From NCBI GenBank assembly GCA_963664815.2, contig CAXXHB010000003.1:2208001-2272000 (forward strand): a stretch of DNA of 64,000 nt, read 5' to 3'. This document shows, in pieces, positions 3,212 to 23,155 of the stretch. Source of the stretch: Spirochaetota bacterium (GTDB lineage: Bacteria; Spirochaetota; UBA4802; UBA5550). The translations under genes were made by a program, and so were the position numbers. Numbering within the stretch: the stretch's first letter is position 1; each line of letters begins with the position of its first letter. The notes beneath the pieces were generated by a model. That model searched no databases, was not told the origin of the DNA, and saw only the letters and a program-made list of their open reading frames with translations.

Positions 3212-4042
3212 TTACTTTAATGTTATAAAGCCGGCTTCAGAGACAATTTTCTGTCCCTCTTTGGAAAGGAGATAATTTACAAAGGCTTTTGATTCTGCAG
3301 AGTAATTTTTTTCATTAACATACATGAACAGTTTTCTGGAAATAGGATATTTCCCTGTTTTACCATTTGCAAGATTGGCAGGTATACTGTTAACGTCAAT
3401 ACCCTTTATAGAGCTGTCAAGATACCCGAAGCCGATATAGCCTATCGCTTTTTTATTATTTGCAACAGTATTTACAACTGCTCCGTTTGATGCCTGCATC
3501 AGAGAATCCTTTCTTACGTCAGTTTTTTTCATAATATCTTCATTCCAGTATTCATATGTACCTGAACTTGAATCCCTTGAAACAACTACAATTTTCAGAT
3601 CATCTCCGCCGACCTGCTTCCAGTTTGTTATTGTACCGTCAAAGATCTGTTTCAACTGGTCTTTTGACAGGTTTTTAATCTTGTTTGAAGGATGAACTAT
3701 GGGAACTATCATATCATAAGCTATGGTTATTTCCCTGATTTTCATCTTTGAGGATTTTCCCTTCTCTTTCTCTTCAGGTTTCATCTCTCTTGATGAATTT
3801 GCAATATCACATGTGCCGTCAAGAAGTGCTTTTATTCCGTTTCCCGAGCCGCTACCCTCAACTGAAATTCCGATTTCAGGTTTTACCGATTTAAAGGCTT
3901 CAATAGCTTTCATCGTAATCGGCAGAACTGTTGTTGAACCTTTGATAACCACTTTCCCCTTCTCTGATGCATTCACGGCAAAAACAGAGAGTACAACTGC
4001 TGCGACAGACAGCATTGCTATTAATTTTTTTCTTAAAAACAT
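3212..4042 (-). CDS. pstS: Phosphate ABC transporter substrate-binding protein
   Basis: Signal peptide; motifs KGSTTV, GSGSGNGI, DIANSSR, SRDSSSGT, YPISRKLFMY; GGAGG RBS. Confidence 0.95.
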   Translation of the reverse strand: MFLRKKLIAMLSVAAVVLSVFAVNASEKGKVVIKGSTTVLPITMKAIEAFKSVKPEIGISVEGSGSGNGIKALLDGTCDIANSSREMKPEEKEKGKSSKMKIREITIAYDMIVPIVHPSNKIKNLSKDQLKQIFDGTITNWKQVGGDDLKIVVVSRDSSSGTYEYWNEDIMKKTDVRKDSLMQASNGAVVNTVANNKKAIGYIGFGYLDSSIKGIDVNSIPANLANGKTGKYPISRKLFMYVNEKNYSAESKAFVNYLLSKEGQKIVSEAGFITLK

Positions 4043-4095
4043 TTATTTAATTCCTCCTGGAAAAATTTAACTTCGTCAGTAATAGATGTTAATGA

Positions 4096-4134
4096 TGTAA
4101 ATAAAAAATTAAGAAATAATTTAAATTTCGTAAA
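4096..4134 (-). promoter_or_regulatory. Pho-box-like array upstream of pstS
   Basis: Minus-strand hexamers TTTACG, TAAATT, TTAATT, TTTACA at an exact 11-bp period (forward starts 4129, 4118, 4107, 4096). Confidence 0.55.
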
Positions 4135-4261
4135 ATATCGTTTCCGGAAACCGGTAAGTGATAATGAATTTCACTATAATATAAAAAGAGTATGAAAAGC
4201 TAAAAAATGATCCGCCCCGGACAATTTCATCATATTCCATAATTCCTGCATATACAGAATA

Positions 4262-4300
4262 TTTATAATTTCTTAGCATCTGCCTGATATTTTTTTTACA
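4262..4300 (+). promoter_or_regulatory. Pho-box-like array upstream of the 799-aa ligase-like gene
   Basis: TTTATA(4262), TTAGCA(4273), CTGATA(4284), TTTACA(4295) at an 11-bp period. Confidence 0.55.
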
Positions 4301-4337
4301 TAATTCCTGTCTGTTAAACCGGAAAACAGGAGGATTC

Positions 4338-6737
4338 ATGAATCGGATAAGTAACAGAGGATCATGGAAAGATATATTTGATTCCGGAAATTCAGGCCCG
4401 ACTGAATTTCTTGACTCACTGAAATCGGCCGGATTTATCCCATATTCCGGGGATGATTCCACATGCGGCATTGAAAATGAATTCCAGACTGCTGTCTCAG
4501 GTAAAAACTCGGATGTTGACCTTCCCAGGAGTATTAAAGAATCCAATTATCTTAAAAATCTTATTAAAAGAATCAACAGGGGTGATCTCAGTGTAAAATC
4601 ATCAGACGGCTTGCTGGAATACCTCGACAGGAATGAAAAGGGGATTTGGGAAAACAGCTGGGTCAGGTTTCCCAGAAATACTCTTTCAGGTTTTGCCGAA
4701 TCAGTTTTCCGTCACGATCTGAAACAGGATAAAAGCAAACCGGCGGGACCTGACAGGAATGATGCAGATAGCTTTATTATAAAAGAAAACGGGAAAGAGT
4801 TCCTGAGAATACCTGTAAGTTACCTGCTGAAACTTGCTCTTGCCGATTCCCTTGACAGCAGAACATACATTCACCCGGTAATAAGGAATACCGGCATAAA
4901 ATTTCTTGATTCTTATCTTAATGACAATACCTCTCCCGAGATTGTATCATTCTTCCCTGTTAAATGCAGCAATGACACACAGTCATCTCAAAGCATTAAG
5001 AACCAGACATTGAAAAGTTACCTGCTTACGCAGATGCTTGTTCTTTATTCCAATAAAAAATTTGAACTATCAATGAACGGTCAGGATGTATCTTTATATT
5101 TTTCACCGCACCCGCCGGTAAGACAGAAAAAGCTTAATGATCTTATTACTGATTCCTTTTACAGGGAGCTTTTTATGAGCCCATGCCTATCCGGATGGGA
5201 CAGGGGAGAGGAAAAACATTCCTATATGAATCTCTGTCATCAGGTACTGTCACGCAGCAGTCTTAACTCAATTTTAAAGCTGAAGGAGGCGGGAATCGTT
5301 TCAGGAAACAGAGTATACCTCAGGGGAATATCAAATATCAGCCTTGCCAATAATGGAACACATATCAGCATTGGGAGCAGAGGGCTCTCAGGCATGCTGC
5401 AGTCCGGTGAAGCATCCTGTACCATTCAACATGAAAAATACTACGGTGATCTTGCAATAAAGATATTCGAACATTTTATTCCGCTTTTCACAGGTACATA
5501 CAGCGCTTCCCCGTACCGGTTAAGCTTTCATGATTTTCATCCGGAAAAAGTGCTCGGCTTTCTCTCTCACGAGCTTGATTTCACACAGCTGCGGATGATC
5601 TGGAGTATATGGCAGAACAAGGCAGATCTCAAGGTTTTCGGAAATCCCGTACTGCCATCAGGACCCGAATGGTTCGAACAGTACATGTTAAAAACATTCA
5701 GGCTGCGCGGGGATTTCGTCAGCGATTTCAGGATGATAGACTTCCCCGTCTCTTTTCTGAGCACTGACGAAAGTCCGTTATTTAACGGCAAACCCGGTAG
5801 TGACGAAAGACTTAAAAAAGATCTTGCGTCAATGGGAATTTTTGACAGCAAAATGTCGGTTTATACTCTCTACAGAATGAGAAGCAACGCAGCCAGCGGA
5901 TATACAGGATTTGAGGGGAGATACTACTCGCTCTTTGAAAGCCTTCAGAACGATCTTGAAAAAGCCGCTGCAGTTCAGACGCTTATTACCTCACTGGCAT
6001 GGAAATACATTATAAACAACACCGTAACCCACGAACACATCCCTGACACCCCGGGAACTGAAAGTGAAAGAAGACAGATAATTTTCGCCACGGCAATCGG
6101 CCTCCCCTGTTTTTTCATTAAAAAAAATACCCGCAATATTTTTATGAATAAAATAATCTCCATGACCCGGAATACCCGGGGCAGCAGCAGGTATCCCGGA
6201 TATCTCAAAGTCCAGACATCAGACTATCTTGCGGCCCTGGTGAAAATAATAAAAACCGACTCGGCAGACCTGGTTGAATCAATGAACCTTGAAAAAACCA
6301 TAGAGGACCTTGAACTGAGAATCAAAACCCCATCTGAATACTCAGCATCATCACGCATTACAGACGGTATACTAAGAAAAGCGGGAGCACATAACCAGTT
6401 TAAAATTTCCGCCGATGAATTCAATCTCTGTGCTGAAGAATACTACAGGGAAGATCTTCGTATAAAGCATATATATGAAGCATACGAAATTCTTCTGGAG
6501 GAGATTGAGTCAATCGACAGCAGTGAAACCTCTGCCGATCCTGAAATAGCATCCGCGATACAGACATTGATGAGCACAAGAAACCGATCCGGTTTTATTA
6601 AGCTTATGAAATCTAAAACAGCTGAGGGTGATCTTCCGCTTATGTATATAGTTACAATGATACAGCTTCTTCTTGTTCTTCTGTATAAAGAGATGAAATA
6701 TTTTTCAATAACCGGAGTCAAAACAGGCAATGCATAG
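4338..6737 (+). CDS. Uncharacterised protein with glutamate-cysteine ligase/glutamine synthetase-type (carboxylate-amine ligase) motifs
   Basis: CAGGAGG RBS. Ordered motifs TCGIENEFQ (GxExE), TSPE, NNGTHISIG (GxH), PLFTGTYSASPY (cf. LLALSANSPF), YRMR, GFEGR (ExR). The fold call is inferred from motifs only. Confidence 0.6.
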   Translation: MNRISNRGSWKDIFDSGNSGPTEFLDSLKSAGFIPYSGDDSTCGIENEFQTAVSGKNSDVDLPRSIKESNYLKNLIKRINRGDLSVKSSDGLLEYLDRNEKGIWENSWVRFPRNTLSGFAESVFRHDLKQDKSKPAGPDRNDADSFIIKENGKEFLRIPVSYLLKLALADSLDSRTYIHPVIRNTGIKFLDSYLNDNTSPEIVSFFPVKCSNDTQSSQSIKNQTLKSYLLTQMLVLYSNKKFELSMNGQDVSLYFSPHPPVRQKKLNDLITDSFYRELFMSPCLSGWDRGEEKHSYMNLCHQVLSRSSLNSILKLKEAGIVSGNRVYLRGISNISLANNGTHISIGSRGLSGMLQSGEASCTIQHEKYYGDLAIKIFEHFIPLFTGTYSASPYRLSFHDFHPEKVLGFLSHELDFTQLRMIWSIWQNKADLKVFGNPVLPSGPEWFEQYMLKTFRLRGDFVSDFRMIDFPVSFLSTDESPLFNGKPGSDERLKKDLASMGIFDSKMSVYTLYRMRSNAASGYTGFEGRYYSLFESLQNDLEKAAAVQTLITSLAWKYIINNTVTHEHIPDTPGTESERRQIIFATAIGLPCFFIKKNTRNIFMNKIISMTRNTRGSSRYPGYLKVQTSDYLAALVKIIKTDSADLVESMNLEKTIEDLELRIKTPSEYSASSRITDGILRKAGAHNQFKISADEFNLCAEEYYREDLRIKHIYEAYEILLEEIESIDSSETSADPEIASAIQTLMSTRNRSGFIKLMKSKTAEGDLPLMYIVTMIQLLLVLLYKEMKYFSITGVKTGNA

Positions 6738-7740
6738 AAATTTTACAACACATCAGTACATTGAGCGGAAAACCGGGTTTATCAAGGATGAAACCCTTTA
6801 CCACGATAATATTGTTAACCATATTTATTCTGCAGCAAGAGAAAACAGATCTGTTATCTACCGCATGGTTACCTCAAAATACATCACGGATATGCTGGCT
6901 TACATTAACTATGATATTCCCATGGGGAAAAGAATTCTCGGTGGAAGCAGTTTCCTGAAAAATGCAGGGATAGACACAACCGAGTTTCTTGATTCACCCG
7001 AATCACTTGATACAGCCAGAAAATTTTTTGAAAGAAAGATAAAATACAATGAATGCCGGCCCATGCCGGTCGGACAGGGAATTATAGTTTCACCGGCTGA
7101 TTCAAGGATGCTGATAGGTTCGCTCGATGAAACAAGCTGTCTTTTTCTTAAAGAAAAATTCTTCAGTTTCGCAGAACTTCTGGGAAATAAAACTGAATGG
7201 CTTGAAAAGTTCTGCAATGGCAAATACGCCGTTTTCAGACTCACTCCGGAAAAATACCATTACAATCATGTACCTGCATCAGGTGTTGTTTCTGATTATT
7301 ACGAGGTTGACGGTAATTATAATTCCTGCAATCCGGGAGCGGTTACCGCCATAGACGGTGCATATTCAAAGAACAGGAGAACAGTAACAATTATCAATAC
7401 AGATGTCCCCGGAGGTACCGGCGCAGGATTTGTAGCAATGATTGAAGTCGCTGCGCTTATGATAGGGGTTATACAGCAATGCTATTCTGAAAACGGGTAT
7501 GATAATCCTTCTGTAGTAATCAAAGGGATGTTCCTCAGAAAAGGTTCGGTAAAAAGCCTCTTTCGCCCCGGAAGTTCTGTAGATATACTCCTCTTCGAAA
7601 AGGGGAGAATTAATTTTTGTGATGATATTGTTGAAAACTCGCAGAGACGTGATGTCCGGAGCAGGTTCACCGTACACTTTGATAAAGCCCTTGTTGAAAC
7701 CGATGTCGAGGTAAGATCGGAAATAGCCCATATAAAATAA
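6730..7740 (+). CDS. Phosphatidylserine decarboxylase family (pyruvoyl-dependent) protein
   Basis: Motifs FFERKIK, IVSPADS, FRLTPEKYHYNHVP, N.R, IEVAALMIG and the self-cleavage motif FRPGSSVDILLF; overlaps the upstream gene by 8 bp. Confidence 0.88.
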   Translation: MHRNFTTHQYIERKTGFIKDETLYHDNIVNHIYSAARENRSVIYRMVTSKYITDMLAYINYDIPMGKRILGGSSFLKNAGIDTTEFLDSPESLDTARKFFERKIKYNECRPMPVGQGIIVSPADSRMLIGSLDETSCLFLKEKFFSFAELLGNKTEWLEKFCNGKYAVFRLTPEKYHYNHVPASGVVSDYYEVDGNYNSCNPGAVTAIDGAYSKNRRTVTIINTDVPGGTGAGFVAMIEVAALMIGVIQQCYSENGYDNPSVVIKGMFLRKGSVKSLFRPGSSVDILLFEKGRINFCDDIVENSQRRDVRSRFTVHFDKALVETDVEVRSEIAHIK

Positions 7741-7755
7741 AAAAAGGAAAATTTT

Positions 7756-8808
7756 ATGACAGAAATAATATTCATACTATCACTTACAGTAATATTATCA
7801 GCAGTTTACACTGTTTCATTCAGATTACTGCCGGATGAAAAATGGCAGATCTTCGCGACAATACCGCTATATAAAACCGGTGACAACTCATGGCATGGGA
7901 TAAACATCACTTATTACGGTCTGCTCACCGCTACAGGTTATACTCTTGCTTTTACAATCTTTATAATTATGATGTCTGCAGCCGGTACTGATTCACTGTT
8001 CTTACTTGTACTGCTTGCAGCCATACTTCTCTTTTTTATACCATCCGCAAAGATAATGGCGGTTTTAATCGAGAAAAAAAAACATACACTGACAGTCGGG
8101 GGAGCAGTGTTTGTAATGTTTATCCTGGCTCCATGGATCATATCATGCCTTAACAGGGTTTCAATAATTACGCATGATCATCAAACGGCTGATATAGTCT
8201 TTTTCTCTTCACTTATTACTGCATACGCCTTTGGTGAGGGTTTCGGGAGGCTTGCATGTATAAGCTTCGGGTGCTGTTACGGTAAAGCTGTAAGCGAACT
8301 TCCGGTTTTTTTTCAGAAGCTTTTCTCGTATTATAATTTTGTTTATACCGGCAAAACAAAAAAAATATCCTATCACGACAACATGGATGGGGTTAAAACA
8401 GTACCCGTGCAGGCCATTACGGCAGTTCTATATACTGCATCCGGACTGGCAGGCCTGTACCTCTTTCTTGACGGGAAATACCTCTTTTCATTTTTTCTTT
8501 CATTAACCGTTACTCAGGTATGGAGATTCATATCAGAATTTTTAAGAGCTGATTTCAGGGGTTATGGAAATATATCAGCATACCAGGTTATGAGTATTAT
8601 GATTGTGCCATATTACATTATTTATACTTTTATATTCGGCATGCCGGATTATTTAAAACCGTCAATTTCACATGGCCTGAGCTATGTATGGAGTCCGGGA
8701 TTAATTATTCTGCTTTTAATCATGTGGATCGGATGTGTACTATATACCGGTGTCAGCAGTGTTACTGCTTCAACAATATCAATATATATAAACGAGGATA
8801 AAATCTGA
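7756..8808 (+). CDS. Divergent prolipoprotein diacylglyceryl transferase (Lgt)-like membrane protein
   Basis: Multiple TM helices; GEGFGRLACISFGCCYG (Lgt GRLGC...GCCYG signature), PVQ, WRFISEFLRAD. Confidence 0.8.
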   Translation: MTEIIFILSLTVILSAVYTVSFRLLPDEKWQIFATIPLYKTGDNSWHGINITYYGLLTATGYTLAFTIFIIMMSAAGTDSLFLLVLLAAILLFFIPSAKIMAVLIEKKKHTLTVGGAVFVMFILAPWIISCLNRVSIITHDHQTADIVFFSSLITAYAFGEGFGRLACISFGCCYGKAVSELPVFFQKLFSYYNFVYTGKTKKISYHDNMDGVKTVPVQAITAVLYTASGLAGLYLFLDGKYLFSFFLSLTVTQVWRFISEFLRADFRGYGNISAYQVMSIMIVPYYIIYTFIFGMPDYLKPSISHGLSYVWSPGLIILLLIMWIGCVLYTGVSSVTASTISIYINEDKI

Positions 8809-9052: not shown

Positions 9053-11704
9053 ATGAATTATAAAGAATCTTTCCTGGAGAGGATCAACAGGGAGATGTCG
9101 GTTTTCAATTTTGAACAGTCTCTCCGTTTTCCGAAAGATGACACCCTGACCATAGATCTTCACTGTCATGACAAAAACAGCAGTGAGCCGGATGAAATTA
9201 TCGGAAGAATGCTTAATATCCCTGAAACATGGCTGCCCACTGAAGAGCTTATAGAAACTCTAAAAAACCATAATTGCGACACATTTACAGTTACAAATCA
9301 TAACAACGCCCGCTCCTGTTATGAACTGCAGGATAAGGGATATGATGTACTTACCGGCTCAGAATTCAGCTGCACCGTTCCCGACTACAACACGAAGATA
9401 CATGTTCTTGCATATGGCTTTAACCCTTCGGAAGAGGAAAAACTGCTTAAGTACAGGAATGATATTTACAGGTTTCAGAGATTCGCCCTGGAGAATAATA
9501 TACCGACAATATGGGCACATCCCCTTTATCACTATGAAGAGAATGCGCGTCTGTCGATGGAGTTCTTTGACAAGATGTCTCTTGTATTTGAAAGATTCGA
9601 GGTTATAAACGGTCAGAGAGATACATGGCAGAATCTCCTTGTCAGGAAGTGGGTTGAATCAATGGGGAGTAATAATCTCGAAAAGTATGAAAAAAAATTC
9701 GGTATAAAAGCTGCAGATTACTGCCGTAATCCATACAGAAAAGGAATGTTCGGAGGTTCTGATTCACATATGGGTATATTTACCGGCCTTACCGGAACAA
9801 GGTTATACGTAAATAAACTGGAGGAGAAGCTTAAAATCCGATCGCGCAGTTCACTTGCGCTTGAAGCACTTCTTGACGGAGATTCAGCTCCCTTCGGCGG
9901 ATACAACAACACCGAAAAGATGACAGTAACATTCCTTGACTATTTCTGCCAGATTGTTATAAATATGAAAGATCCAGGACTTCTGCGCCTTCTGCTTCAT
10001 AAGGGTGATACGAAGGATAAACTCCTTTCATTTATGGCAATAAACGGTTTCGCCGAACTGCAGAGACACAAGCTTACAGTTAATTTTCTTACCCTGTTTC
10101 ACCAGTGTCTGAAGGGTGAAACCCCCGGTTTCGCAAAAAAGCTTATGGTGCCAAAAGACTACAAGGATATTTTCACTGAAGCTGCGTCCATGGCCGATGT
10201 CCGGAGGAAAAATCCGGAAAATATGGCTGAATCTTTTGACAGTTCAATAAAAAAAATACATAAATCGCTCTTTGACCTTATGTTCAGCAGGCTTGATTAT
10301 AAACTTAAACAGATGAATATAGAAGGGGGTACTTCGATAAAAGACGCTGAAGAATTCATCAGCACGCTTGAACTCCCTGTTCACTTCCGTAAACTCTTTG
10401 AGATAAGGGGTAAAAAAAGAAAGAACGGGATAACTATTATCAATGCCCCCGACTTTCTTGACGGCCTCACCTTTCCCTTCCTGGCCTCATCAGTAATTGC
10501 TGCCGCTGATTACGCCTCAAGCAGGGTAATGTACAAATCAAGAGAGATGCTGAACGCCTTCTCCGAAAAACTGGATGACCTTAAACTTCCGAAAAAGATG
10601 TTATGGCTCACAGATACATTTGAAGATGGGAACGGTGTATCAATGTTTCTGAGACACATGCTTGACGAAATAAAGGAGAGAAACCTCCCGATAGATATCC
10701 TTGTATGCAGCGAAGCAGTAAATCCGGAAGAGCATCTTGTTGTTATGAAACCTGCAGCGGTATACACACCCTCTTTTTACAAAGAACAGCCGATAAGGAT
10801 CCCCAACATTATGGATATTCATTCACATTTCAGGGATGGGGAATATGACAGAATTCTCTGCTCGACAGAGGGACCGATGGGACTTGTTTCCATTTATCTG
10901 AAAATGGCATATTCTGTCCCGGCATACTTCTTTGTGCATACGGACTGGATTACATTTGCCAGATCAACCCTTAATTTCAGTGACCCGGCAATGAACAGAC
11001 TGAGAAGAATCCTGCGCGGATTTTACAGGTCATACGACGGTGTTCTGGTACTTAACAAGGAGCAGAAAAAGTGGTTCAGCGGTCCTGATATGGAGTTTAA
11101 AAAAACAGAGGTAAAGCTTACCTCTCACTGGGTTGATGAAAAATTCAGAAAAACTGATGCATTAAAATCAGTCATGTTCAGCATCAGCAACGATAAACCT
11201 GTTCTTCTCTATGTCGGAAGAATCAGCGAGGAAAAAGGTGTAAATGAACTCCCGTATATATATAAACGTGTAAAGGAGGAATATCCGGATATGCAGATGG
11301 TAATAGCCGGAAAAGGCCCGGAAGAGGAAAGGCTTAAAACCGAAATGCCCGATGCCATATTCCTCGGATGGGTTGAGCATAATTCTCTTCCTGATATATA
11401 CTCCTCGTCTGATCTTCTGATACTCCCGTCAAGGTTCGATACATTCGGCAATGTTATCGTTGAGGCATTCGCCTGCGGATGCCCTGTGGTTTCATACAAT
11501 ACAAAGGGTCCCAGGGATATAATAGAAAATGAAAAATCAGGTTACCTGGTGAACACGAAAGAGAAAATGGCTGAAGCTGTTATCTCACACTTTAAAAAAG
11601 GAAAGGGGATGAATGCCATGAAAGAAGCAGCATCTGCAAGATCAAAAGATTTTACTGCGGACAGTATTATCGGGAAACTTCTGAAAGATACAGAACTTCT
11701 CTGA
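9053..11704 (+). CDS. PHP-domain phosphoesterase fused to GT4 glycosyltransferase
   Basis: N-terminal PHP motifs IDLHCHD, TNHN, GSEF, WAHP, FEVING, GGSDSH; C-terminal GT4 motifs TDTFEDGNGV, YVGRISEEKG, DTFGNVIVEAFACG. Confidence 0.88.
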   Translation: MNYKESFLERINREMSVFNFEQSLRFPKDDTLTIDLHCHDKNSSEPDEIIGRMLNIPETWLPTEELIETLKNHNCDTFTVTNHNNARSCYELQDKGYDVLTGSEFSCTVPDYNTKIHVLAYGFNPSEEEKLLKYRNDIYRFQRFALENNIPTIWAHPLYHYEENARLSMEFFDKMSLVFERFEVINGQRDTWQNLLVRKWVESMGSNNLEKYEKKFGIKAADYCRNPYRKGMFGGSDSHMGIFTGLTGTRLYVNKLEEKLKIRSRSSLALEALLDGDSAPFGGYNNTEKMTVTFLDYFCQIVINMKDPGLLRLLLHKGDTKDKLLSFMAINGFAELQRHKLTVNFLTLFHQCLKGETPGFAKKLMVPKDYKDIFTEAASMADVRRKNPENMAESFDSSIKKIHKSLFDLMFSRLDYKLKQMNIEGGTSIKDAEEFISTLELPVHFRKLFEIRGKKRKNGITIINAPDFLDGLTFPFLASSVIAAADYASSRVMYKSREMLNAFSEKLDDLKLPKKMLWLTDTFEDGNGVSMFLRHMLDEIKERNLPIDILVCSEAVNPEEHLVVMKPAAVYTPSFYKEQPIRIPNIMDIHSHFRDGEYDRILCSTEGPMGLVSIYLKMAYSVPAYFFVHTDWITFARSTLNFSDPAMNRLRRILRGFYRSYDGVLVLNKEQKKWFSGPDMEFKKTEVKLTSHWVDEKFRKTDALKSVMFSISNDKPVLLYVGRISEEKGVNELPYIYKRVKEEYPDMQMVIAGKGPEEERLKTEMPDAIFLGWVEHNSLPDIYSSSDLLILPSRFDTFGNVIVEAFACGCPVVSYNTKGPRDIIENEKSGYLVNTKEKMAEAVISHFKKGKGMNAMKEAASARSKDFTADSIIGKLLKDTELL

Positions 11705-11705
11705 C

Positions 11706-13313
11706 ATGACTGAAACTCAATGGTGGAAAACCGGGGTAATCTATCAGATATATCCCAGGAGTTTTTATGACAGCAATGATGACGGGATTGGAGACCTTAA
11801 AGGTATTACCGCAAAGCTTGATTATCTTTCATGGCTTGGAATAGACGCCATATGGCTATCCCCGGTAAACAGTTCCCCGATGTATGATTTCGGATACGAT
11901 ATATCCGATTATTATGATATAGATACACGTTACGGCACTCTCGATAATTTTGACGAACTGATCATAAAAGCCCATGAACGCGGTATAAGAATTATCATGG
12001 ATCTTGTTGTCAATCACACATCATATCTTCACAAATGGTTTATTGAATCCCGCTCATCAAGAGACAACAGAAAACGTGACTGGTATATCTGGCACGAGGG
12101 TAAAAAGGGGGAACCTCCGAATAACTGGAAATCAGCTTTCGGCGGCAGCGCCTGGGAGTTTGACAACCATACCGGAGAATACTATCTCCATTCATTCTTA
12201 AAAGAACAGCCCGACCTTAACTGGCGTAACCCGGCCATGAGAAAGTCTGTCTATAAAATGATGCGGTTCTGGCTTGATAAAGGTGTAGACGGTTTCAGGC
12301 TGGATGTTGTCAACTGGTTTGTCAAGGATGACAGATTCCGCAGCAATCCATTCACCATAAAACCCCTTGATCCCGAAAAGCATAAATATGACCGGAACCG
12401 CCCGGAGGTGCATGAATACATTCGTGAACTGAGAGGAGTTATTAATGAATATAAAAGCAGGATGACTGTCGGCGAAGTTTTTACACTCCCGCCGGGAAAT
12501 CCGGAGCTCTCGGCTTCATTTCTGGGAAACGGTACCGATGAGCTGCACCTTACATTTGATTTTTCAATAATGTACAGATTCTGGAACGCAAGGCGTTTTT
12601 ACAAATGTATAAAAAAATGGTCTTCGGTGATTCCGGAAAACGGCTGGCAGTGCAATGTCCTGTCAAATCATGACCAGCCCCGGGGCAGAAGCAGATTTAT
12701 GGGTGGAGCTGATTCCGAAAAACGCGCAAGAGTCGCCGCTGTTTTTCTGCTTACAATCAAAGGCACTCCGTTTTTATATTATGGAGAGGAGCTTGGCATG
12801 AAGAATACCCGGCTAAACAGAAATGAAATAGTTGACCCCTTAGGAAAAAAATACTGGCCGGTATACAGAGGCAGAGACTGTTCCCGGACTCCAATGCTCT
12901 GGTCAGGGAAACATAATGCCGGCTTTTCGCAGGTCAAACCCTGGCTCCCTGTAGACAGCGATTATAAAAAAATCAATGTAAAAACCCAGACAGCCGACAG
13001 ATATTCCATTCTTAACCATTATAAAAACGCCATTCAACTCCGTAAATCCCATAAAGCTCTTTCTGAAGGTGATTTCACACCGCTCCTGAGAGGATTCAAT
13101 AATGTACTCGGTTATTTCAGAATTCATGATAATGAAACTTTTTTTATCATTCTGAACTTTTCGTCTAAAGAAAAGAGCGTTCATGCCGGACACTCTGCCC
13201 AGTGGAGGGTAATGTTATCCACCCACCGGACGCGTTATGAGCATTTCACCTCGTTGAACATGAATCTGGCTCCATACGAGGCTACTGTGCTTATGAGAAT
13301 AGGTGAGCTATGA
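11706..13313 (+). CDS. GH13 alpha-glucosidase / oligo-1,6-glucosidase
   Basis: Motifs WWKTGVIYQIYPRSF, DLVVNHTS, QPDLNW, GFRLDV, GEV, SNHD. Confidence 0.93.
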   Translation: MTETQWWKTGVIYQIYPRSFYDSNDDGIGDLKGITAKLDYLSWLGIDAIWLSPVNSSPMYDFGYDISDYYDIDTRYGTLDNFDELIIKAHERGIRIIMDLVVNHTSYLHKWFIESRSSRDNRKRDWYIWHEGKKGEPPNNWKSAFGGSAWEFDNHTGEYYLHSFLKEQPDLNWRNPAMRKSVYKMMRFWLDKGVDGFRLDVVNWFVKDDRFRSNPFTIKPLDPEKHKYDRNRPEVHEYIRELRGVINEYKSRMTVGEVFTLPPGNPELSASFLGNGTDELHLTFDFSIMYRFWNARRFYKCIKKWSSVIPENGWQCNVLSNHDQPRGRSRFMGGADSEKRARVAAVFLLTIKGTPFLYYGEELGMKNTRLNRNEIVDPLGKKYWPVYRGRDCSRTPMLWSGKHNAGFSQVKPWLPVDSDYKKINVKTQTADRYSILNHYKNAIQLRKSHKALSEGDFTPLLRGFNNVLGYFRIHDNETFFIILNFSSKEKSVHAGHSAQWRVMLSTHRTRYEHFTSLNMNLAPYEATVLMRIGEL

Positions 13314-17414: not shown

Positions 17415-18599
17415 TCACATATACTTCATAATCAGCAGCGACATATCATCCCCCTGCGCATTTCCGAATCTCCAGCTTTTCAGTTCTTCAAAAACAATAT
17501 TTTTAATCTGTTCTATTGCACTTTTACGGTATTTCATTGCAAGGGAGAGTATCTTCTGCTCTCCAAAACACTTGTCTGCCAGGTTAATCTGTTCGGGCAG
17601 ACCGTCAGTATATGACAGAAGCATATCCCCCTGTCCTAGTCTTAATTTCGCTTTAACCGGAACCAGTTCCTTTTTTATTCCAAGAGGAAGATTGTCATTA
17701 TTTGCGGAAGCCTGAGCTGCCGTACCCTCTTTTAACAGGTAAACCATTGAATGCCCCATATCGTACAGGTCAAGTTCCCCTGTTATTTCATTGAAATCAA
17801 TGAATATCCCTGTCAGAAAAATCTCCCCATCAAACAGTCCGTGAATATATGAATTGATTCTGCAGATAAGCCCGTCTATACCGCTGCTGAAATCATAGGC
17901 AGCATACATACTGCTTACCGCCACAGATATCAGCCCGGCATTCAATCCTTTGCCTGAAACATCGCAGAGTGAAATAAACCAGCGTTTATCTCCTATCTCA
18001 CGGACGTACTGGAAATCACCCCCGGTTTCACCCGCCATCATCATATATCCGGCAACAGACATTCTGCGTGACTCAATATAAATTTCATCCCTGACAATGG
18101 CAGAATGAATTCTCCTGGCTGCTTTAAGCTCACGGGTCATCATGTCCGAAAGAAAAAGAACAAGATCAAATGTTGATATTAAGCCCCTGTAACTGTTTTC
18201 CGTATCAATCAGGATATAGAACCTGTTGTATACCGATCTTAACTCATCCGAGAGCTCATCTATGACTGAAAAGGTATTCCTTTTATAATAGATCATTTCA
18301 GCCGGCCTGACTACATCCTTAATACTTTTGTTAAGGTAAAGCTCTCTTCCGAACATCTGTCCTATCAGTGAAAACAGCTCATTTCTTATAATAACACCTG
18401 TAGCCTTGCCGTTTATGTCTGCAACACCAAGCGCCTGCATTCCGCTGTTGCCGGTGAAAATCTCAGCCGCATCTCCTACTGTGCATTCATCAGTTATATA
18501 ACAGGCAGTGGATATCCTTTTGCAAATAAGCTCGCCGCCGCCATTCTCCCTTTCAACTGACTTTAGTATGCTGTTTATCAATTCCGGTGTTGTTTTCAT
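17415..18599 (-). CDS. CBS-pair + SpoIIE/PP2C protein phosphatase
   Basis: N-terminal CBS-like repeats; GGDF, DVSGKG, GH, YTDGL, DDMS. Confidence 0.88.
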   Translation of the reverse strand: MKTTPELINSILKSVERENGGGELICKRISTACYITDECTVGDAAEIFTGNSGMQALGVADINGKATGVIIRNELFSLIGQMFGRELYLNKSIKDVVRPAEMIYYKRNTFSVIDELSDELRSVYNRFYILIDTENSYRGLISTFDLVLFLSDMMTRELKAARRIHSAIVRDEIYIESRRMSVAGYMMMAGETGGDFQYVREIGDKRWFISLCDVSGKGLNAGLISVAVSSMYAAYDFSSGIDGLICRINSYIHGLFDGEIFLTGIFIDFNEITGELDLYDMGHSMVYLLKEGTAAQASANNDNLPLGIKKELVPVKAKLRLGQGDMLLSYTDGLPEQINLADKCFGEQKILSLAMKYRKSAIEQIKNIVFEELKSWRFGNAQGDDMSLLIMKYM

Positions 18600-20331
18600 T
18601 GTTCTCCTGATTATTCTCCTGACCTTTCAATAAGTTTATATTTTTAACAAGGAGAACCTGATTCCCTTTCGAATTATACCGCACCTCGTCAAAAATACTT
18701 TTTACCATCGCTATACCTCTTCCATGCATAAGACCTAGTTCAGCCGTTTCATCGCTTATCACTGACAAATACTTCCTGTGATTGAATCCCTTCCCCTGAT
18801 CGGTAATCTTGTACACGGCCTTCTCTGGTGATATCATGTATTCAATCCGTACCCTCTTCTCCCTGAAATCGGGATGTCTCTGCCGTTCATTAATAAAATC
18901 AAAATATCTGTCTGACAGTATCGCCTCTGTTTTCTCATCAAACGATATATTAAGGTTTCCATGCTCTATAGAATTCAGAATAATCTCTCTAAGCCCTATC
19001 CTTATTACAGTGATATCGCTTTTATCAATATACTTCTGCAGGTTGTTTGTTATTCTGTGTGATATATCATCCGCTTCGAAGAGAAGATTTTTTATCATAT
19101 ACTCGCACTTCTCACTTATAAATGCCTCGGTAAACCTGTCATCCGTCAGCTTAACCGCTTTTCCTATTATCTCTTTTTTCCCGTCTATCTCAATAAATTC
19201 CAGATTTATCATAAACTCCACAGGCTCTATCAGGTTCGGAGTCTTTAACTGGGCATTGAATTTCAATGCCCTGTTCTCTTTTCTCGATTCTTCAAGTTTT
19301 TCTGTCACAATTCTGCGAAGTATTGTAGCATCAGTAAGTTCATCACATATAAGGTCAATCAATCTGAACTTTGTAACTGCATCAGGACTTATTTTAAGCT
19401 GTGTTTTAATTGCGTCATTGGCAGTTACAAAATACCAGTCGGCATCAAGGGTAAAAATGATATCCGTTGTACCCTCAACTATCTGTCTGTATTTTTTTTC
19501 AGATACAGATAACAGCCGGTTTTTATCTTCAATTTCATCTTTTGATAAAATAAGTTTATTCTCGGTAATTTTATGTTCATCAATCTCTTTTTTAAGGGAA
19601 GTATTCGCTTCAACATACTCCCTTGTTCTCTCCTGCACCATTTTCTCCAGTATATTATGTGTTTTAAGCAGCCTTCTTCCCATCTGTCTCCCGTAATAGA
19701 TTAAAAGAATAATAAATATAATGGTGGACATCACAACTATAACCAAATAACGGCTGTTTACAAAGAAGCTTTGTCTGACACCACCCTTTTCAATTCTCGA
19801 TGCAATGTCAGTGAGGGAATTCAGAAGCTCATTTTCTATTCCTCTGGTAACGACAATTTTTTCATGAACATTTTTGAAATTTCTGTTTTCCATATCAGCT
19901 ATGTGATTCGTAAACTGCAGTGTCATGCTCTTATGAATCAATCTGAGCTTCTCTATATCATCCGATATCTCCTTTTCTCCGCTGTTCTGAAGTTTGAGAT
20001 TGAATAAAATATTCTGAACACTCTCGGATTTTTTTGAAAACTCATGAAAGTTGATCTGAAATTCGGAATAGCTTCCATCCGATATAAGTATATTATTCCA
20101 TGCTATTACCTGTTCATGCAGCGCAATCTGCGCGCTTCGTGCCAGACTTATACCCATATAATTTTCAGAGAGATCATTCGAGGTTCCGAAGATTGAATAA
20201 ATACCAAGAGCTGCATTCAATATAAATATTATAAAAAATGCCGTTAATCCGCCGCTGATCAGCATGTATGTCTCATTCTTTTCGCTGCTGAAAAATTTTT
20301 TTAATAATAACAAATCTTTTATCTTCTTCAT
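18553..20331 (-). CDS. Membrane sensor with PAS and RsbW-like HATPase (anti-sigma/Ser kinase) domain
   Basis: Two TM helices, coiled coil, PAS (YRQIVEGTTDIIFTLD), C-terminal LREIILNSIEHGN...ITDQGKGF...HGRGI...YNSKGNQV; no His-box. Confidence 0.8.
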   Translation of the reverse strand: MKKIKDLLLLKKFFSSEKNETYMLISGGLTAFFIIFILNAALGIYSIFGTSNDLSENYMGISLARSAQIALHEQVIAWNNILISDGSYSEFQINFHEFSKKSESVQNILFNLKLQNSGEKEISDDIEKLRLIHKSMTLQFTNHIADMENRNFKNVHEKIVVTRGIENELLNSLTDIASRIEKGGVRQSFFVNSRYLVIVVMSTIIFIILLIYYGRQMGRRLLKTHNILEKMVQERTREYVEANTSLKKEIDEHKITENKLILSKDEIEDKNRLLSVSEKKYRQIVEGTTDIIFTLDADWYFVTANDAIKTQLKISPDAVTKFRLIDLICDELTDATILRRIVTEKLEESRKENRALKFNAQLKTPNLIEPVEFMINLEFIEIDGKKEIIGKAVKLTDDRFTEAFISEKCEYMIKNLLFEADDISHRITNNLQKYIDKSDITVIRIGLREIILNSIEHGNLNISFDEKTEAILSDRYFDFINERQRHPDFREKRVRIEYMISPEKAVYKITDQGKGFNHRKYLSVISDETAELGLMHGRGIAMVKSIFDEVRYNSKGNQVLLVKNINLLKGQENNQENNENNTGIDKQHTKVS

Positions 20332-20505: not shown

Positions 20506-20642
20506 AAATCTAAAAACTGCTCTTCTAAATTCCTGCATGAACATATGGCCGGCATAACATCAGAAATCAATAACACGTATCAGATATTATGTTGTTCATA
20601 ATTTTTTTAATTCTAAAATTTAATAAAAAACAGGAGATTCAA

Positions 20643-21959
20643 ATGAAAAAATTTCTGACAATCTGCATGGCACTTCTTTTTGCAGGCAGTGCATTTGCAC
20701 AGGAGGGAAAAACCGAAGAAAAAAAAGGACCCGAATTCAAATACAGCATATGGGCAAATGCATTTGCTGTAACCGAAGAAACGGCCAAAAAAGATGAAGA
20801 AAAGCAATATTCAAACATCAGAATAAGGCCGATGTTTTCACTCAGTAATGAAAATGTCTCTGTTGTAACAAGATTAGAGATTGACCAGTATTTTGGAGCG
20901 AAATATTCAGCTACAGGGAATGATGTTTCCTATGCAGACCCTGATGGAGATGAAAAAGCCGTTGAAGTTAAATGGGCGTACATCAATGTAAAAGACATGA
21001 TTATGCCTGGCCTTTCCATGACAGCAGGACTTGCGCCATATAAGTACTCAGTCGGTTTCGACAATGACATGCCTCTCTTTAATCTTGTTTACGATGCAGA
21101 TATGTTTAAAATTGACCTCTCTTATATAAAATTTGTTGAAGGTTCAACAACAGATACAAGTGCCGCAGTTGCAGCAACTTCGACAGAGGGTGTCAAAGCT
21201 AAAGATGATGCTCAGGCGTATGCTGCAAAATTACCTGTAAAGCTTGGCGACATTACCGTAACTCCATCTGTTCTCTATTTCACAGGTGACAATAATGTTA
21301 CAAACTCAACCGGTACAGCTTTAGGTTATACTTCAAAACTAACTATGCCGGCACTTGGCGTAAAGGCTAAACTCGGCGATATTTCACTTGATGGAGACTT
21401 CCAGTACATAACAGGAGAAACAAAAGACAATTTAACTTCTGTAAAAACCGATGTTGCGGCTTACGCGGCTTTTGTTAATGCAGGTTTCAAAGCTTCCGAC
21501 ACTCTCAAGCTGAACGTTTTCGGCCTTTATTCAACAGGGGAAGACGATAAAGCTGATAAAACCACTTCATTCCAGACAGCCTGCCAGGATGAAATTGAAG
21601 TGGGACCTATGTTTATCATCAACGACAATGGTCTTATCACACAGGTCGGCATTTCAAAAGAATATGACAAAATTACTGAAGGTCTTATAATGTTTGGTTT
21701 TTCAGCAGAAGCTAAACTTGACAAGCTTACAGCTCTTGCACAGGTGGCATATGCTAAAACAGCATCTGACAAAGTTGTTAAAGATACAGCTCTTGGAACT
21801 GAAATTGACCTCAGACTGTCATATGAAGTTGCACCCAAAACCTCTCTCTGGGTTGAAGGCGCTTACCTTGCAGGAGGAAAGTATATTGAAACAACAAACA
21901 CTGCAAGTGGTGACCAGAACCCGATGTATTATGCAGCAGGTTTATTGACAAGTTTCTGA
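20643..21959 (+). CDS. Outer-membrane beta-barrel porin (alginate-export/phosphate-porin-like)
   Basis: CAGGAG RBS before ATG 20643; signal peptide ending AFA; alternating beta strands; LGTEIDL.LSY motif; C-terminal Phe. Confidence 0.75.
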   Translation: MKKFLTICMALLFAGSAFAQEGKTEEKKGPEFKYSIWANAFAVTEETAKKDEEKQYSNIRIRPMFSLSNENVSVVTRLEIDQYFGAKYSATGNDVSYADPDGDEKAVEVKWAYINVKDMIMPGLSMTAGLAPYKYSVGFDNDMPLFNLVYDADMFKIDLSYIKFVEGSTTDTSAAVAATSTEGVKAKDDAQAYAAKLPVKLGDITVTPSVLYFTGDNNVTNSTGTALGYTSKLTMPALGVKAKLGDISLDGDFQYITGETKDNLTSVKTDVAAYAAFVNAGFKASDTLKLNVFGLYSTGEDDKADKTTSFQTACQDEIEVGPMFIINDNGLITQVGISKEYDKITEGLIMFGFSAEAKLDKLTALAQVAYAKTASDKVVKDTALGTEIDLRLSYEVAPKTSLWVEGAYLAGGKYIETTNTASGDQNPMYYAAGLLTSF

Positions 21960-22122: not shown

Positions 22123-22161
22123 TAAATATAATATTTACAATTTCTTTATTATTTCTTTAAA
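22123..22161 (+). promoter_or_regulatory. Pho-box-like array upstream of pstC
   Basis: TAAATA(22123), TTTACA(22134), TTTATT(22145), TTTAAA(22156). Confidence 0.55.
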
Positions 22162-22210
22162 AATTATGATATTGTAGTATTAAGAAAAACAATATTTTCA
22201 TTACCGACAG

Positions 22211-23155
22211 GTGTATAATAAGAATATGACAGTAATACATGATAAAAATAAAAACAGTAATATAAAATTTAAAAAGCATAACAGCATATATTTTGATATT
22301 ATTATAGAAAAATTCTTTTATATTGTCGGTTTTTCATCACTTCTTGTACTTTTGACAATAATGATTTTTTTAATAAAAGAGGGTATCCCCCTTTTTAAAG
22401 AGATAAGTATTTCTGATTTTATCCTTGGAAAAGAGTGGTATCCCACAAGCAGTAATCCGAGGTTTGGAATTCTGCCGCTGATAATTTCCTCTGTTTATAT
22501 TACTTTAATTGCCTCTGTAATAGCTATTCCCCTGAGCCTCTCTGTAGCAATATATATCGCAGAGCTTGCAGGGAATACGATGAAAGAGATTGTCAAACCG
22601 GCTGTTGAGATAATCGCCTCGATACCATCGGTTATTGTCGGTTTTTTCGGCATGGTTGTCGTTGCACCCTTTTTAATGGAACATTTTGATATTGATTCAG
22701 GGTTAAATCTTCTTAATGCCTCTCTGATGCTGGCATTTATGGCTATTCCGACAATTGCGAGTATTTCGGAAGATGCAATATCATCTGTACCGATGAGCCT
22801 TAAAGAAGCCTCATATGCACTTGGAGCTAACAGATGGCAGACTATAATTTATGTTACCATACCGGCTTCATTGTCCGGCATATGGACGGCAATAATTTTA
22901 GGCATTTCAAGAGTAATCGGCGAAACTATGATTGTGCTTATGGTTGCAGGGGGGGCATCAGTTATACCCGACTCTGTATTCAGTCCTGTCCGTCCATTAA
23001 CTTCAAATATCGCCGCTGAAATGGCCGAAGCGTCAGTCGGCGGAACACATTACAGGGCGCTTTTTGCAATAGGGATAATTCTTTTTATAATTACATTCAT
23101 TTTCAATATAATAGCAGATTATCTGTCAAATAAATATAAATTCAAGACGGGTTGA
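22211..23155 (+). CDS. pstC: Phosphate ABC transporter permease PstC
   Basis: Motifs GKEWYP...FGILPLI, IPSVIVGFFG, EASYALGANRWQT, SRVIGETM. Confidence 0.95.
   Translation: MYNKNMTVIHDKNKNSNIKFKKHNSIYFDIIIEKFFYIVGFSSLLVLLTIMIFLIKEGIPLFKEISISDFILGKEWYPTSSNPRFGILPLIISSVYITLIASVIAIPLSLSVAIYIAELAGNTMKEIVKPAVEIIASIPSVIVGFFGMVVVAPFLMEHFDIDSGLNLLNASLMLAFMAIPTIASISEDAISSVPMSLKEASYALGANRWQTIIYVTIPASLSGIWTAIILGISRVIGETMIVLMVAGGASVIPDSVFSPVRPLTSNIAAEMAEASVGGTHYRALFAIGIILFIITFIFNIIADYLSNKYKFKTG

Follow-up and report, generated by a model that had tools for sequence, protein, structure and literature searches.

A conserved three-gene unit adjoining phosphate-uptake genes in a Spirochaetota bacterium probably makes a membrane lipid that contains cysteine but no phosphorus under phosphate scarcity

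Three co-directional genes on the + strand, at positions 4338-8808 of the 64,000-nucleotide stretch of a Spirochaetota genome that was analysed here (the window), adjoin phosphate-uptake genes and probably serve to make a cysteine-containing membrane lipid without phosphorus under phosphate scarcity. They encode a 799-aa carboxylate-amine ligase, unrelated to ATP-grasp enzymes, with the GCL/PafA/glutamine-synthetase fold (4338..6737), a 336-aa pyruvoyl decarboxylase that is a paralogue of the PSD family (6730..7740) and a 350-aa membrane transferase with the Lgt fold (7756..8808). The ligase and PSD-like genes overlap by 8 bp and a gap of 15 bp separates the PSD-like from the Lgt-like gene, which confirms the coordinates and the coupling given in the initial annotation. 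That annotation had read the trio as a route to a phosphorus-free lipid by ligase, decarboxylase and Lgt-like enzyme, and its interpretation is supported, the computational checks having matched the prediction. We put the probability at roughly 0.55 that the trio is a phosphate-starvation operon which turns phosphatidylglycerol into a phosphorus-free, zwitterionic thioether aminolipid by the following steps, of which we infer the substrates, the order, the topology and the induction. The ligase would use ATP to couple glutamate, through its gamma-carboxyl, with the amino group of a cysteine that is either free or already lipid-bound. The PSD-type pyruvoyl decarboxylase would then remove the alpha-carboxyl of the gamma-glutamyl residue, leaving a 4-aminobutanoyl-cysteine head group. 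Finally, the Lgt paralogue, its active site towards the cytoplasm, would move the diradylglyceryl group of inner-leaflet phosphatidylglycerol to the cysteine thiol, and glycerol-1-phosphate would be released inside the cell, where its phosphate could be reused.

A survey of 80 related loci, which belong to Leptospirales, Spirochaetia, Desulfobacterota, Brocadia, NC10 and Bacteriovoracaceae, showed the trio to be conserved as a unit across phyla. The PSD-like gene is the next gene after the ligase, on the same strand, in all 71 loci with at least 1.3 kb of downstream sequence. The Lgt-like gene follows it within 1.5 kb in 62 of the 64 loci whose downstream sequence extends to 2.8 kb or more; in the remaining two it lies further downstream on the same strand. 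Neighbours of the trio are enriched in pst, phoU, phoB-like and phoH2 genes and in genes for a long GT4 glycosyltransferase and a Zn phospholipase C. Pst or PhoU genes are near the trio in 17 of the 80 loci; 31 loci have at least one of Pst, PhoU, PhoH2 and a PhoB-like regulator, and 23 have the long GT4 or the Zn phospholipase C. At least one member of these classes was present in 49. The frequency of pst/pho genes near the trio is far above what chance would give for a single-copy operon.

Known Pho-regulated phospholipid replacement proceeds through PlcP with the Agt glycosyltransferase, through BtaAB (betaine lipids) or through OlsBA/OlsF (ornithine lipids). The trio shares the physiological logic of these routes, and pst/pho genes, a phospholipase C and a GT4 glycosyltransferase are found nearby. 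However, its enzymes differ, its proposed product has a thioether-linked amino acid head group, and diacylglyceryl would pass straight from phosphatidylglycerol to its acceptor, with no intermediate of free diacylglycerol. These same neighbours (pst/phoU/phoB-like genes, Zn phospholipase C and GT4) fit poorly with products that keep their phosphorus, and a literature search gave no matching lipid of that kind. It is therefore unlikely that the trio modifies phospholipid head groups instead of replacing phosphorus, for example with the ligase attaching an amino acid through an amide bond to phosphatidylserine or phosphatidylethanolamine, the PSD paralogue decarboxylating the product and the Lgt-like enzyme moving diacylglycerol to a hydroxyl or amine acceptor. 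Such a scheme would agree with the phospholipid nature of the known PSD-family substrate and with the change, in the Lgt-like enzyme, of the HGGL motif that is proposed to bind the lipobox (available sections of PMC4728403).

The ligase has more than 2,854 homologues. It matched no Pfam or NCBIfam model, none of 24 family members matched a GCL family even at E <= 10, and hhalign of the family against the GCS2 alignment gave a probability of 0.14%, i.e. no profile-profile similarity. All of the GCL-superfamily motifs that had been claimed for it nevertheless occur in its sequence, and across the 24 aligned family members they vary little or not at all (G44-x-E46-x-E48, W104-E105, G340-x-H342, Y388-S-A-S-P392-Y393-R394, R419 and E526-x-R528), and these acidic, His and Arg motifs run in the order of those of GCS2. 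The GCS2/GshA/PafA fold that had been expected was found by VIA-align of an AlphaFold model (pLDDT 72, pTM 0.80). PafA aligned at Z 11.9 over 361 residues (rmsd 4.0), followed by Dop at 11.9, GshF at 10.9, YbdK at 10.7 and GshA at 10.3. Rows 1-13 were carboxylate-amine ligases throughout, and the next unrelated fold scored Z 4.4. The fold is thus common to GshA (1V4G), GshF (3LN7), YbdK (1TT4) and PafA/Dop (4BJR, 9CKU) over 308-380 residues at Z 9.8-11.9, whereas the trio ligase is about 300 residues longer than known glutamate-cysteine ligases and PafA/Dop. The substrate is not readable from the model because two stretches rich in invariant residues have pLDDT < 50. We propose that the enzyme forms the gamma-glutamyl-cysteine amide. 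As a canonical GshA is also encoded in the genome (433 bits), a second gamma-Glu-Cys synthetase needs a reason, such as a lipid-bound substrate.

The assignment of the second protein as a pyruvoyl PSD-type decarboxylase was borne out by PF02666 (E 9.4e-39, 133.6 bits) and by an intact G-S-S cleavage motif, G281-S282-S283, which is invariant in the family together with D124, H177 and H180. Like E. coli Psd (6L06/7CNW), with which it aligns over residues 90-252 (E 1e-12), it belongs to PF02666 and has the GS[ST] motif of self-cleavage as well as conserved Asp and His residues. Unlike E. coli Psd it lies far under every PSD equivalog cut-off (best NCBIfam model, 151 against 371), its gene is the third PSD copy of the genome, and that gene is always linked with the ligase and Lgt-like genes. 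Because the genome has two other, stronger PSD genes (207 and 187 bits) and another Lgt (150 bits), the PSD-like and Lgt-like genes of the trio are extra paralogues. The role proposed for the decarboxylase is the removal of the alpha-carboxyl of the gamma-glutamyl residue, or of that of cysteine.

PSD enzymes act on lipid-linked serine with a free amine, of which S-glyceryl-cysteine would be the closest analogue, and this chemistry argues for another order of the same reactions. The Lgt-like enzyme would first produce S-diradylglyceryl-cysteine, the PSD-like enzyme would convert it to S-diradylglyceryl-cysteamine, and the ligase would add glutamate via its gamma-carboxyl. The intermediates would be sulfur analogues of phosphatidylserine and then of phosphatidylethanolamine, and the product would carry an isomeric gamma-glutamyl-cysteamine head group of the same formula, C7H14N2O3S, so that the match by formula described below is identical. 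The GshA already encoded in the genome would agree with a ligase dedicated to lipid-bound amines, and PafA and Dop, the top structural neighbours of the ligase, act on macromolecular amines. The gene order ligase-decarboxylase-transferase, on the other hand, lends no support to this sequence of events, which we regard as possible but doubtful.

The Lgt-like protein passes the PF01790 cut-off (36.6 bits against 24.9) and scores 32.6 with the NCBIfam Lgt equivalog, whose cut-off is 334. Its model (pLDDT 87.8) has the fold of E. coli Lgt, 5AZB, as indicated by Foldseek (E 4.6e-4, prob 1.00) and VIA (Z 12.6, 236 of 284 residues aligned; next Z 4.8). The Lgt residues that had been singled out, G164-R165-L166 and R257..E261..R264, are invariant in the family, as are the equivalents of Y26, R143, G154, R239, E243 and R246 of the E. 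coli enzyme (Mao et al., 2016; available sections of PMC4728403). The two reported motif losses were also found, TLTVGG standing for SFHGG and VPVQAIT for HPSQLYE of E. coli, in a mapping made by motif and via the genome's own Lgt, not by direct residue alignment to E. coli. His103 is therefore missing, but to call the enzyme catalytically altered, as was done initially, is too strong, since the equivalents of R143, R239, E243, R246 and Y26 are present. Cys occupies the N146 position, and the region aligned with E151 reads G-C-C-Y-G, without an acidic residue. In the available sections of PMC4728403 the tested substitutions at H103 and E151 inactivate E. coli Lgt. The presumed housekeeping Lgt of the genome itself likewise lacks His103 and has a Cys in the signature motif. 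We propose that the Lgt-like enzyme transfers the diradylglyceryl group of phosphatidylglycerol to a thiol.

According to the same sections of PMC4728403, proteins are the only known Lgt acceptors, and this would agree with a dedicated protein lipidation, in which the Lgt paralogue lipidates the Cys of a cytoplasm-exposed protein or peptide and the PafA-like ligase and the decarboxylase tailor it. PafA and Dop are also the top structural neighbours of the ligase, by a narrow margin. However, the Lgt-like enzyme has Val at the equivalent of His103, for which binding of the lipobox peptide is proposed there. None of the other gene families occurs with the trio in over 19 of the 80 loci, and the window has no ORF in the interval from pstS to the ligase gene. 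Such a function is very improbable.

The proposed transfer to the cysteine thiol would take place on the cytoplasmic side. The catalytic side of E. coli Lgt is periplasmic and negatively charged (available sections of PMC4728403). In contrast, the catalytic-side loops of the Lgt-like family are rich in Lys and Arg: in every one of 24 sequences that side has a K+R count of 14-24 and the opposite side one of 0-4. The catalytic-side loops of the genome's own Lgt are poor in K/R. By the positive-inside rule alone, this suggests that the active site of the Lgt-like enzyme faces the cytoplasm. It further differs from E. coli Lgt by one extra transmembrane helix at each of its N- and C-terminal ends, and in being encoded by a second copy beside another Lgt in the genome.

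Subtraction of CO2 from gamma-Glu-Cys gives C7H14N2O3S, and subtraction of the thiol H as well gives C7H13N2O3S+, with a computed m/z of 205.0641. This ion equals the head-group ion (C7H13O3N2S+, m/z 205.064) of the BACys ("N-butyramide cysteine glycerol") lipids of Desulfatibacillum alkenivorans PF2803T (Ding et al., PNAS 2024, PMC11181052). In the available parts of that paper, BACys lipids are seen at low phosphate only, they take the place of PE, PG and CL alongside glucuronosyl lipids, and their DAG/AEG/DEG cores are those of the phospholipids. The proposed trio product, which like BACys would be phosphorus-free and contain sulfur and nitrogen, is isobaric with it, and BACys is most simply its identification; at least two other isomers have the same head-group formula. 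The head-group structure is a tentative MS2 assignment in those parts of the paper, a butyramide unit plus a cysteine unit, and this reading fits 4-aminobutanoyl-cysteine better than the glutamyl-cysteamine of the other reaction order. The initial annotation did not recognise a described route. This holds for the genes, but the lipid class was reported in 2024 (PMC11181052, as far as available); a literature search found no paper naming BACys genes. The logic of a peptide head group, diacylglycerol from phosphatidylglycerol and a decarboxylation fits this orphan lipid class induced by phosphate limitation. That work is on chemistry only, the available parts of the paper naming no genes, and the BACys producer is a sulfate reducer whereas the organism of the window is a spirochaete relative. 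D. alkenivorans was absent among the 120 matches listed of 2,912 for the ligase. As no more than 54 of the 201 genomes sampled from the order to which Desulfosarcina widdelii belongs have the ligase, the presence of the trio in D. alkenivorans cannot be assumed.

Divergent from the trio lies pstS (3212..4042, - strand), which encodes the phosphate-binding protein of an ABC transporter (TIGR02136, 270 bits, cut-off 206.6; PF12849, E 1.3e-47). It is not followed by pstCAB, the next gene on its strand encoding a pirin. The AT-rich control region of 295 bp common to pstS and the trio (4043..4337) contains a segment, ~4258-4308, that hardly differs from the sequence preceding the trio in L001, a related genome with a ligase of only 74% identity. 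A Pho-box-like array had been described here. Four hexamers can indeed be read at an exact 11-bp period (TTTATA 4262, TTAGCA 4273, CTGATA 4284, TTTACA 4295), but no E. coli-type Pho box rises above chance, the best match in the window to the E. coli consensus being 9/14 with a shuffle mean of 9.1. A better sign of shared control of the trio and pstC is a 16-mer. Searched as the degenerate pattern ATATTTAYAATTTCTT, it has two exact matches in the 5.2-Mb genome, against one for the reversed control pattern. The copy ATATTTATAATTTCTT (4259..4274, + strand), a candidate operator or promoter element, ends 63 nt before the ligase start, and the second copy, ATATTTACAATTTCTT (22131..22146, + strand), ends 64 nt before the start of pstC. 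The same 16-mer also occurs upstream of the trio in L001. The permease genes pstC (22211-23155) and pstA (23232-24086), both on the + strand and both with PF00528, were matched in tblastn by PstC/PstA-type neighbours of other trio loci at 291 and 124 bits.

Downstream of the trio, with no terminator-like site found between 8808 and 9053, a gene at 9053..11704 on the + strand encodes an 883-aa protein with PF00534 and PF13439, the GT4 part occupying residues ~527-875. Its N-terminal domain of ~520 aa opens with a DLHCH motif and may be PHP-like. This part had no Pfam match, and a minority of the members of its nearest Atlas clusters carry PHP_C or PHP (score 0.94), which is no more than a lead. 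The protein is a candidate partner of the trio that may make an accompanying glycolipid. In 17 of the 80 loci a relative is encoded no further than 8 kb from the trio, and this company of a long GT4 gene, here as in those loci, resembles the occurrence of BACys together with glucuronosyl glycerolipids in the available parts of PMC11181052.

The three genes are encoded as open reading frames on the plus strand: the ligase gene (4338-6737, 799 amino acids), the PSD-like decarboxylase gene (6730-7740, 336 amino acids, PF02666) and the Lgt-like transferase gene (7756-8808, 350 amino acids, PF01790). They are co-directional, the first two overlapping by 8 bp and the last two being separated by a 15-bp gap. 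ORF and family-model checks agreed with the coordinates and gene calls made for 4338-8808 in the initial annotation, in which this trio was proposed as a phosphate-starvation route to a phosphorus-free lipid. On the minus strand a PstS-family phosphate-binding protein is encoded by pstS (3212-4042; TIGR02136, 270 bits against a cut-off of 206.6), and pstS and the trio diverge from a 295-bp AT-rich spacer. The genome contains one more Lgt gene (150 bits) and two more PSD genes (207 and 187 bits), so the Lgt-like and PSD-like genes of the trio are extra paralogues. It also encodes GshA (433 bits).

The ligase matched no model in Pfam or NCBIfam. Its more than 2,854 homologues are ~50% identical even across phyla and nearly all are named 'hypothetical protein'. 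In an alignment of 24 members the motifs G44xE46xE48, W104-E105, G340xH342, SxSP392-Y393-R394, R419 and E526xR528 were invariant or nearly so, which upheld the motif list on which the assignment to the glutamate-cysteine ligase (GCL), glutamine synthetase and PafA superfamily had been based. None of the 24 sequences matched the GCL families PF04107 (GCS2) or PF04262 (Glu_cys_ligase) even at E<=10, and all Pfam matches at this threshold were scattered chance matches. Comparison of the family by hhalign with an alignment of five GCS2 sequences, taken from the genomes of five relatives, gave a probability of 0.14%. Neither the ligase sequence nor the family profile found anything in the PDB below E 0.8.

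An AlphaFold model of the ligase was made from the 24-member alignment (pLDDT 72, pTM 0.80); the stretches 324-347 and 465-530, which are rich in invariant residues, had a pLDDT below 50. Foldseek returned nothing for this model at E<=0.001, its best row by TM being GshF (3ln6). In an exhaustive VIA-align search the first 13 rows were all carboxylate-amine ligases (Z 4.9-11.9), followed by an unrelated fold at Z 4.4. They comprised PafA (Z 11.9, rmsd 4.0 over 361 aligned residues), Dop (likewise Z 11.9), GshF (Z 10.9), YbdK (Z 10.7), GshA of E. coli (Z 10.3), the GCLs of plants and yeast and five glutamine synthetases. The expected GCL/PafA fold was detected by VIA-align (Z 10-12) only. As modelled, the ligase has this fold, yet its family is absent from current libraries; it is new to them in the sense that the fold is shared with GCL/PafA while membership at the sequence level fails. 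From the order of the motifs and the fold we infer that the acidic, His and Arg motifs are equivalent to the catalytic residues of GCL. The C-terminal helix, hydrophobic here (KD19 1.94) but only amphipathic in most relatives, was considered as a membrane anchor, and no such role is claimed.

The PSD-like protein is a member of PF02666 (133.6 bits, cut-off 22; E 9.4e-39) and aligns to the PSD structures 7cnw and 6l06. D124, H177, H180 and the pyruvoyl-forming G281-S282-S283 are invariant in its family. It scored well below every NCBIfam PSD equivalog cut-off (best NF001941, 151 versus 371) and, judged by these cut-offs, would not be orthologous to bona fide PSD.

The Lgt-like protein cleared the PF01790 cut-off narrowly (36.6 versus 24.9 bits) and failed that of the NCBIfam equivalog NF000778 (32.6 versus 334), and is therefore a member of the Lgt family and not an equivalog. 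PDB sequence searches with the protein and its profile did not reach E. coli Lgt. Its model (pLDDT 87.8) matched 5azb in Foldseek (E 4.6e-4, probability 1.00) and was aligned by VIA to E. coli Lgt (5AZB) with Z 12.6 and rmsd 4.0 (236 of 284 residues aligned); Z was 4.8 for the chain ranked next. The seven-helix Lgt fold is present in the model, its core flanked by an additional helix on either side (2-27 and 314-331).

The residues of the Lgt-like protein were mapped, via the genome's own Lgt encoded outside the window, onto the E. coli numbering in the accessible text of Mao et al. (2016, PMC4728403). Y54 (Y26 in E. coli), R165 (R143), G176 (G154), R257 (R239), E261 (E243) and R264 (R246) are kept and were invariant in 24 Lgt-like sequences. 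His103 of the HGGL motif was indeed missing, as the initial annotation had noted, being replaced by Val114 in T-V-G-G. The signature reads G-R-L-A-C168-I-S-F-G-C173-C174-Y-G176; C168 stands at the position of N146 and G-C173-C174-Y-G makes up the E151 region. The E. coli signature G142RLGNFINGELWG154 has both N146 and E151, whereas the Lgt-like protein has neither. According to the accessible text of Mao et al. (2016, PMC4728403), the substitutions H103A/N/Q/R/Y and E151A/Q inactivate E. coli Lgt, the HGGL motif is proposed to bind the lipobox, and the catalytic side faces the periplasm and carries negative charge. The genome's own Lgt (150 bits) likewise has no His103 (Tyr) and has Cys for N146, so that the changes at these two positions are not by themselves proof of inactivity of the Lgt-like protein.

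The loops of the Lgt-like protein contain 14-24 Lys and Arg residues on the catalytic side versus 0-4 on the opposite side, in all 24 family members. In the genome's own Lgt the catalytic-side loops are poor in Lys and Arg, the pattern being that of E. coli Lgt. Because of the positive-inside rule these counts predict that the active site of the Lgt-like protein faces the cytoplasm; it would not share the periplasmic active site of Lgt. An ATP-dependent ligase and free cysteine are cytoplasmic. The genome's only other Lgt, presumably the housekeeping one, lies ~735 kb downstream of the window (L081, the region of this gene, 1495-2262; G000:C3) and carries Tyr at the essential His103. Its signature is GRLGCHASGDGCYG versus GRLGNFINGELWG, and it looks like a member of a Cys-type Lgt subfamily.

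A scan of species-representative genomes confirmed at least 573 loci, the best 80 of which were analysed. These belong to Leptospirales, Spirochaetia, many Desulfobacterota, Brocadia, NC10 and Bacteriovoracaceae. The PSD-like gene came next after the ligase gene on the same strand at all 71 loci for which at least 1.3 kb downstream was available, and the Lgt-like gene followed within 1.5 kb at 62 of the 64 loci with at least 2.8 kb; at the remaining two (loci L049 and L078) it lay further along the same strand. Within these best 80 of 573 loci the trio is kept as a unit across phyla and, at part of them, lies among pst/pho genes, as had been supposed from the single genome. At Syntrophales-type loci a DksA-like gene stands between the PSD-like and Lgt-like genes. 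At Geobacteraceae loci (L022, L029, L035, L043, L046, L051, L055, L059 and others) the Lgt-like gene is followed directly by one gene for a DUF2062 membrane protein and one for a Zn-dependent phospholipase C (PF00882).

All flanking ORFs of the 80 loci were clustered and representatives annotated. The neighbours included histidine kinases (19 of 80 loci), an OmpR-type regulator with PhoB as best model (284.5 bits, cut-off 296.2; 18), a ~815-amino-acid GT4 glycosyltransferase like that at 9053-11704 of the window (17), a DksA-like protein (13), PhoU and DUF2062 (12 each), PstB (11), PstS, PhoH2 and Zn-dependent phospholipase C (10 each) and PstC/A (8). Among these best 80 of 573 loci, Pst or PhoU was found beside the trio at 17, any phosphate-related neighbour at 31, GT4 or phospholipase C at 23, and at least one phosphate or GT4/phospholipase C neighbour at 49. 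The chance that a single-copy pst operon lies within 8 kb of a random gene is put at well under 1%, a value that we estimated rather than computed as a control. The distribution of the cassette is patchy. Of 201 genomes sampled from the order to which Desulfosarcina widdelii belongs, 54 had the ligase, as did 8 of the 41 genomes around that of the window, itself counted.

Control by phosphate was examined upstream of the trio, where a Pho-box-like array had been described in the initial annotation. The scan used a Pho box consensus of the E. coli type. In the 320 nt around the ligase start its best score was 9/14, the mean of the shuffles; over 69 upstream regions 27 scored at least 10, versus 251 of 1,380 shuffles, a modest excess only. 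Upstream of the trio no E. coli-type Pho box rose above chance. A stretch of about 50 nt in front of the ligase gene is almost unchanged in a related genome, where ligase identity is only 74%, and the 16-mer ATATTTAYAATTTCTT inside this stretch has two exact copies in the 5.2-Mb genome, a reversed control pattern having one. The first copy ends 63 nt before the ligase start and the second (22131-22146) 64 nt before the pstC start. With one mismatch allowed, nine sites were found versus five for the reversed control, most of them not placed at promoters. The 16-mer, shared at a like distance from both starts, is a candidate control element and may be a sign of common control of the trio and pstCA. 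The 14-nt direct repeat TTNCATAATTCCTG (4235 and 4296) was rejected as a regulatory motif: its four other genomic copies read on the opposite strand as what is probably a ribosome-binding site plus ATG. Sigma-70-like sites were no more frequent by consensus scan than in shuffles.

Downstream of the trio, with no terminator between them in a consensus scan, an 883-amino-acid protein is encoded (9053-11704) in which an unassigned N-terminal domain of ~520 residues is fused to a GT4 glycosyltransferase. The N-terminal domain opens with a DLHCH motif, and a minority of the members of its nearest Protein Atlas clusters carry PHP_C or PHP, which is a lead only. This arrangement suggests a phosphoesterase-plus-glycosyltransferase route to a glycolipid. 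Two bases past its stop codon a GH13 alpha-amylase-family gene was found (11706-13313; PF00128, E 4e-149), for which the best NCBIfam rows were under their cut-offs.

As far as the accessible text of Ding et al. (PNAS 2024, PMC11181052) describes it, phosphate-limited Desulfatibacillum alkenivorans swaps PE, PG and cardiolipin almost completely for two lipid classes, glucuronosyl glycerolipids and new sulfur-containing aminolipids, tentatively N-butyramide cysteine glycerols (BACys). The same text gives a BACys head-group ion of m/z 205.064 (C7H13O3N2S+), cores that are diacyl, acyl/ether or diether as in phospholipids, and spectra read by the authors as a C4 amide unit plus cysteine; it names no genes for BACys. 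Full-text literature searches found no paper naming the genes of the trio or linking the three families, and 'butyramide cysteine' in the 2024 paper only. D. alkenivorans was not among the 120 matches listed of 2,912 to the Desulfosarcina widdelii ligase, which is no evidence of absence.

By calculation gamma-glutamyl-cysteine minus CO2 is C7H14N2O3S, and after loss of the thiol hydrogen C7H13N2O3S+, m/z 205.0641, which agrees with the ion reported for BACys. The three enzyme types of the trio fit those that would be required to build a BACys-like lipid from phosphatidylglycerol. The GCL-fold ligase would form the head-group amide. A pyruvoyl decarboxylase needs a free alpha-amino acid, and the PSD-type enzyme would decarboxylate such a unit. 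The Lgt-type transferase would form the thioether between the diradylglyceryl group of phosphatidylglycerol and the cysteine thiol; moving the diradylglyceryl unit as a whole would account for the phospholipid cores of the new lipids. The GT4 gene beside the trio would suit the glucuronosyl lipids. An isobaric head group would arise if S-glyceryl-cysteine were decarboxylated to cysteamine and then gamma-glutamylated. This alternative is in close analogy to phosphatidylserine and would explain a second, larger ligase in a genome that already has GshA. A head group of 4-aminobutanoyl-cysteine S-linked to glycerol is favoured because of the C4 amide and cysteine read from the spectra.

With the 4-aminobutanoyl-cysteine head group, the reading to which we give a probability of about one half is that an Lgt-fold enzyme, inverted in the membrane, has come to act on a small thiol of the cytoplasm in place of proteins. 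Acting with a GCL-fold ligase of a new family and with a PSD-type decarboxylase that has also been retargeted, this enzyme would convert phosphatidylglycerol to S-diradylglyceryl 4-aminobutanoyl-cysteine in one transfer step, and glycerol-phosphate would be freed within the cell. Such a route would be the first for lipids of the BACys type, would stand under phosphate control and would occur in more than 500 species, most of them anaerobes (at least 573 loci). Phosphate-triggered replacement of phospholipids is already known; the enzymes and chemistry would be new.

Phospholipid replacement is a major microbial strategy under phosphate scarcity, and PlcP/Agt, BtaAB, Ols and Sqd are used as gene markers for phosphorus stress in environmental data. 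To our knowledge, the sulfur-aminolipid route of 2024 has so far had no gene marker for the anaerobes of sediments, groundwater and digesters. If the trio is the BACys route, it would give genes to an orphan lipid class and a function to a large family of 'hypothetical proteins' 800 residues long, and an Lgt fold would act on small molecules from the cytoplasmic side. The proposed head-group structure would be revised to decarboxylated gamma-glutamyl-cysteine, and the pathway would be directly testable in any LC-MS laboratory.

The phosphate genes of the genome are spread over ~100 kb. An orphan pstS adjoins the trio, pstC and pstA (22131-24086 region) lie 13 kb downstream, and pstB, phoU, a PhoB-like regulator and a second pstS are found ~38 kb past the end of the window (G000:C3:2309068-2312477). 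Two genes upstream of the orphan pstS, a 671-amino-acid protein (28-2043) combines a long N-terminal part without assignment with a LytTR DNA-binding domain at its C-terminus. Directly upstream of the pstC promoter element is a 456-amino-acid ORF (20589-21959) with no Pfam match at E<=1e-5. Three paralogous SpoIIE/PP2C-type phosphatases are encoded at 17415-18599, 24125-25564 and 25682-27121; one of these genes follows a HATPase_c_2 anti-sigma-type kinase gene (18553-20331), and two are tandem copies of 479 amino acids.
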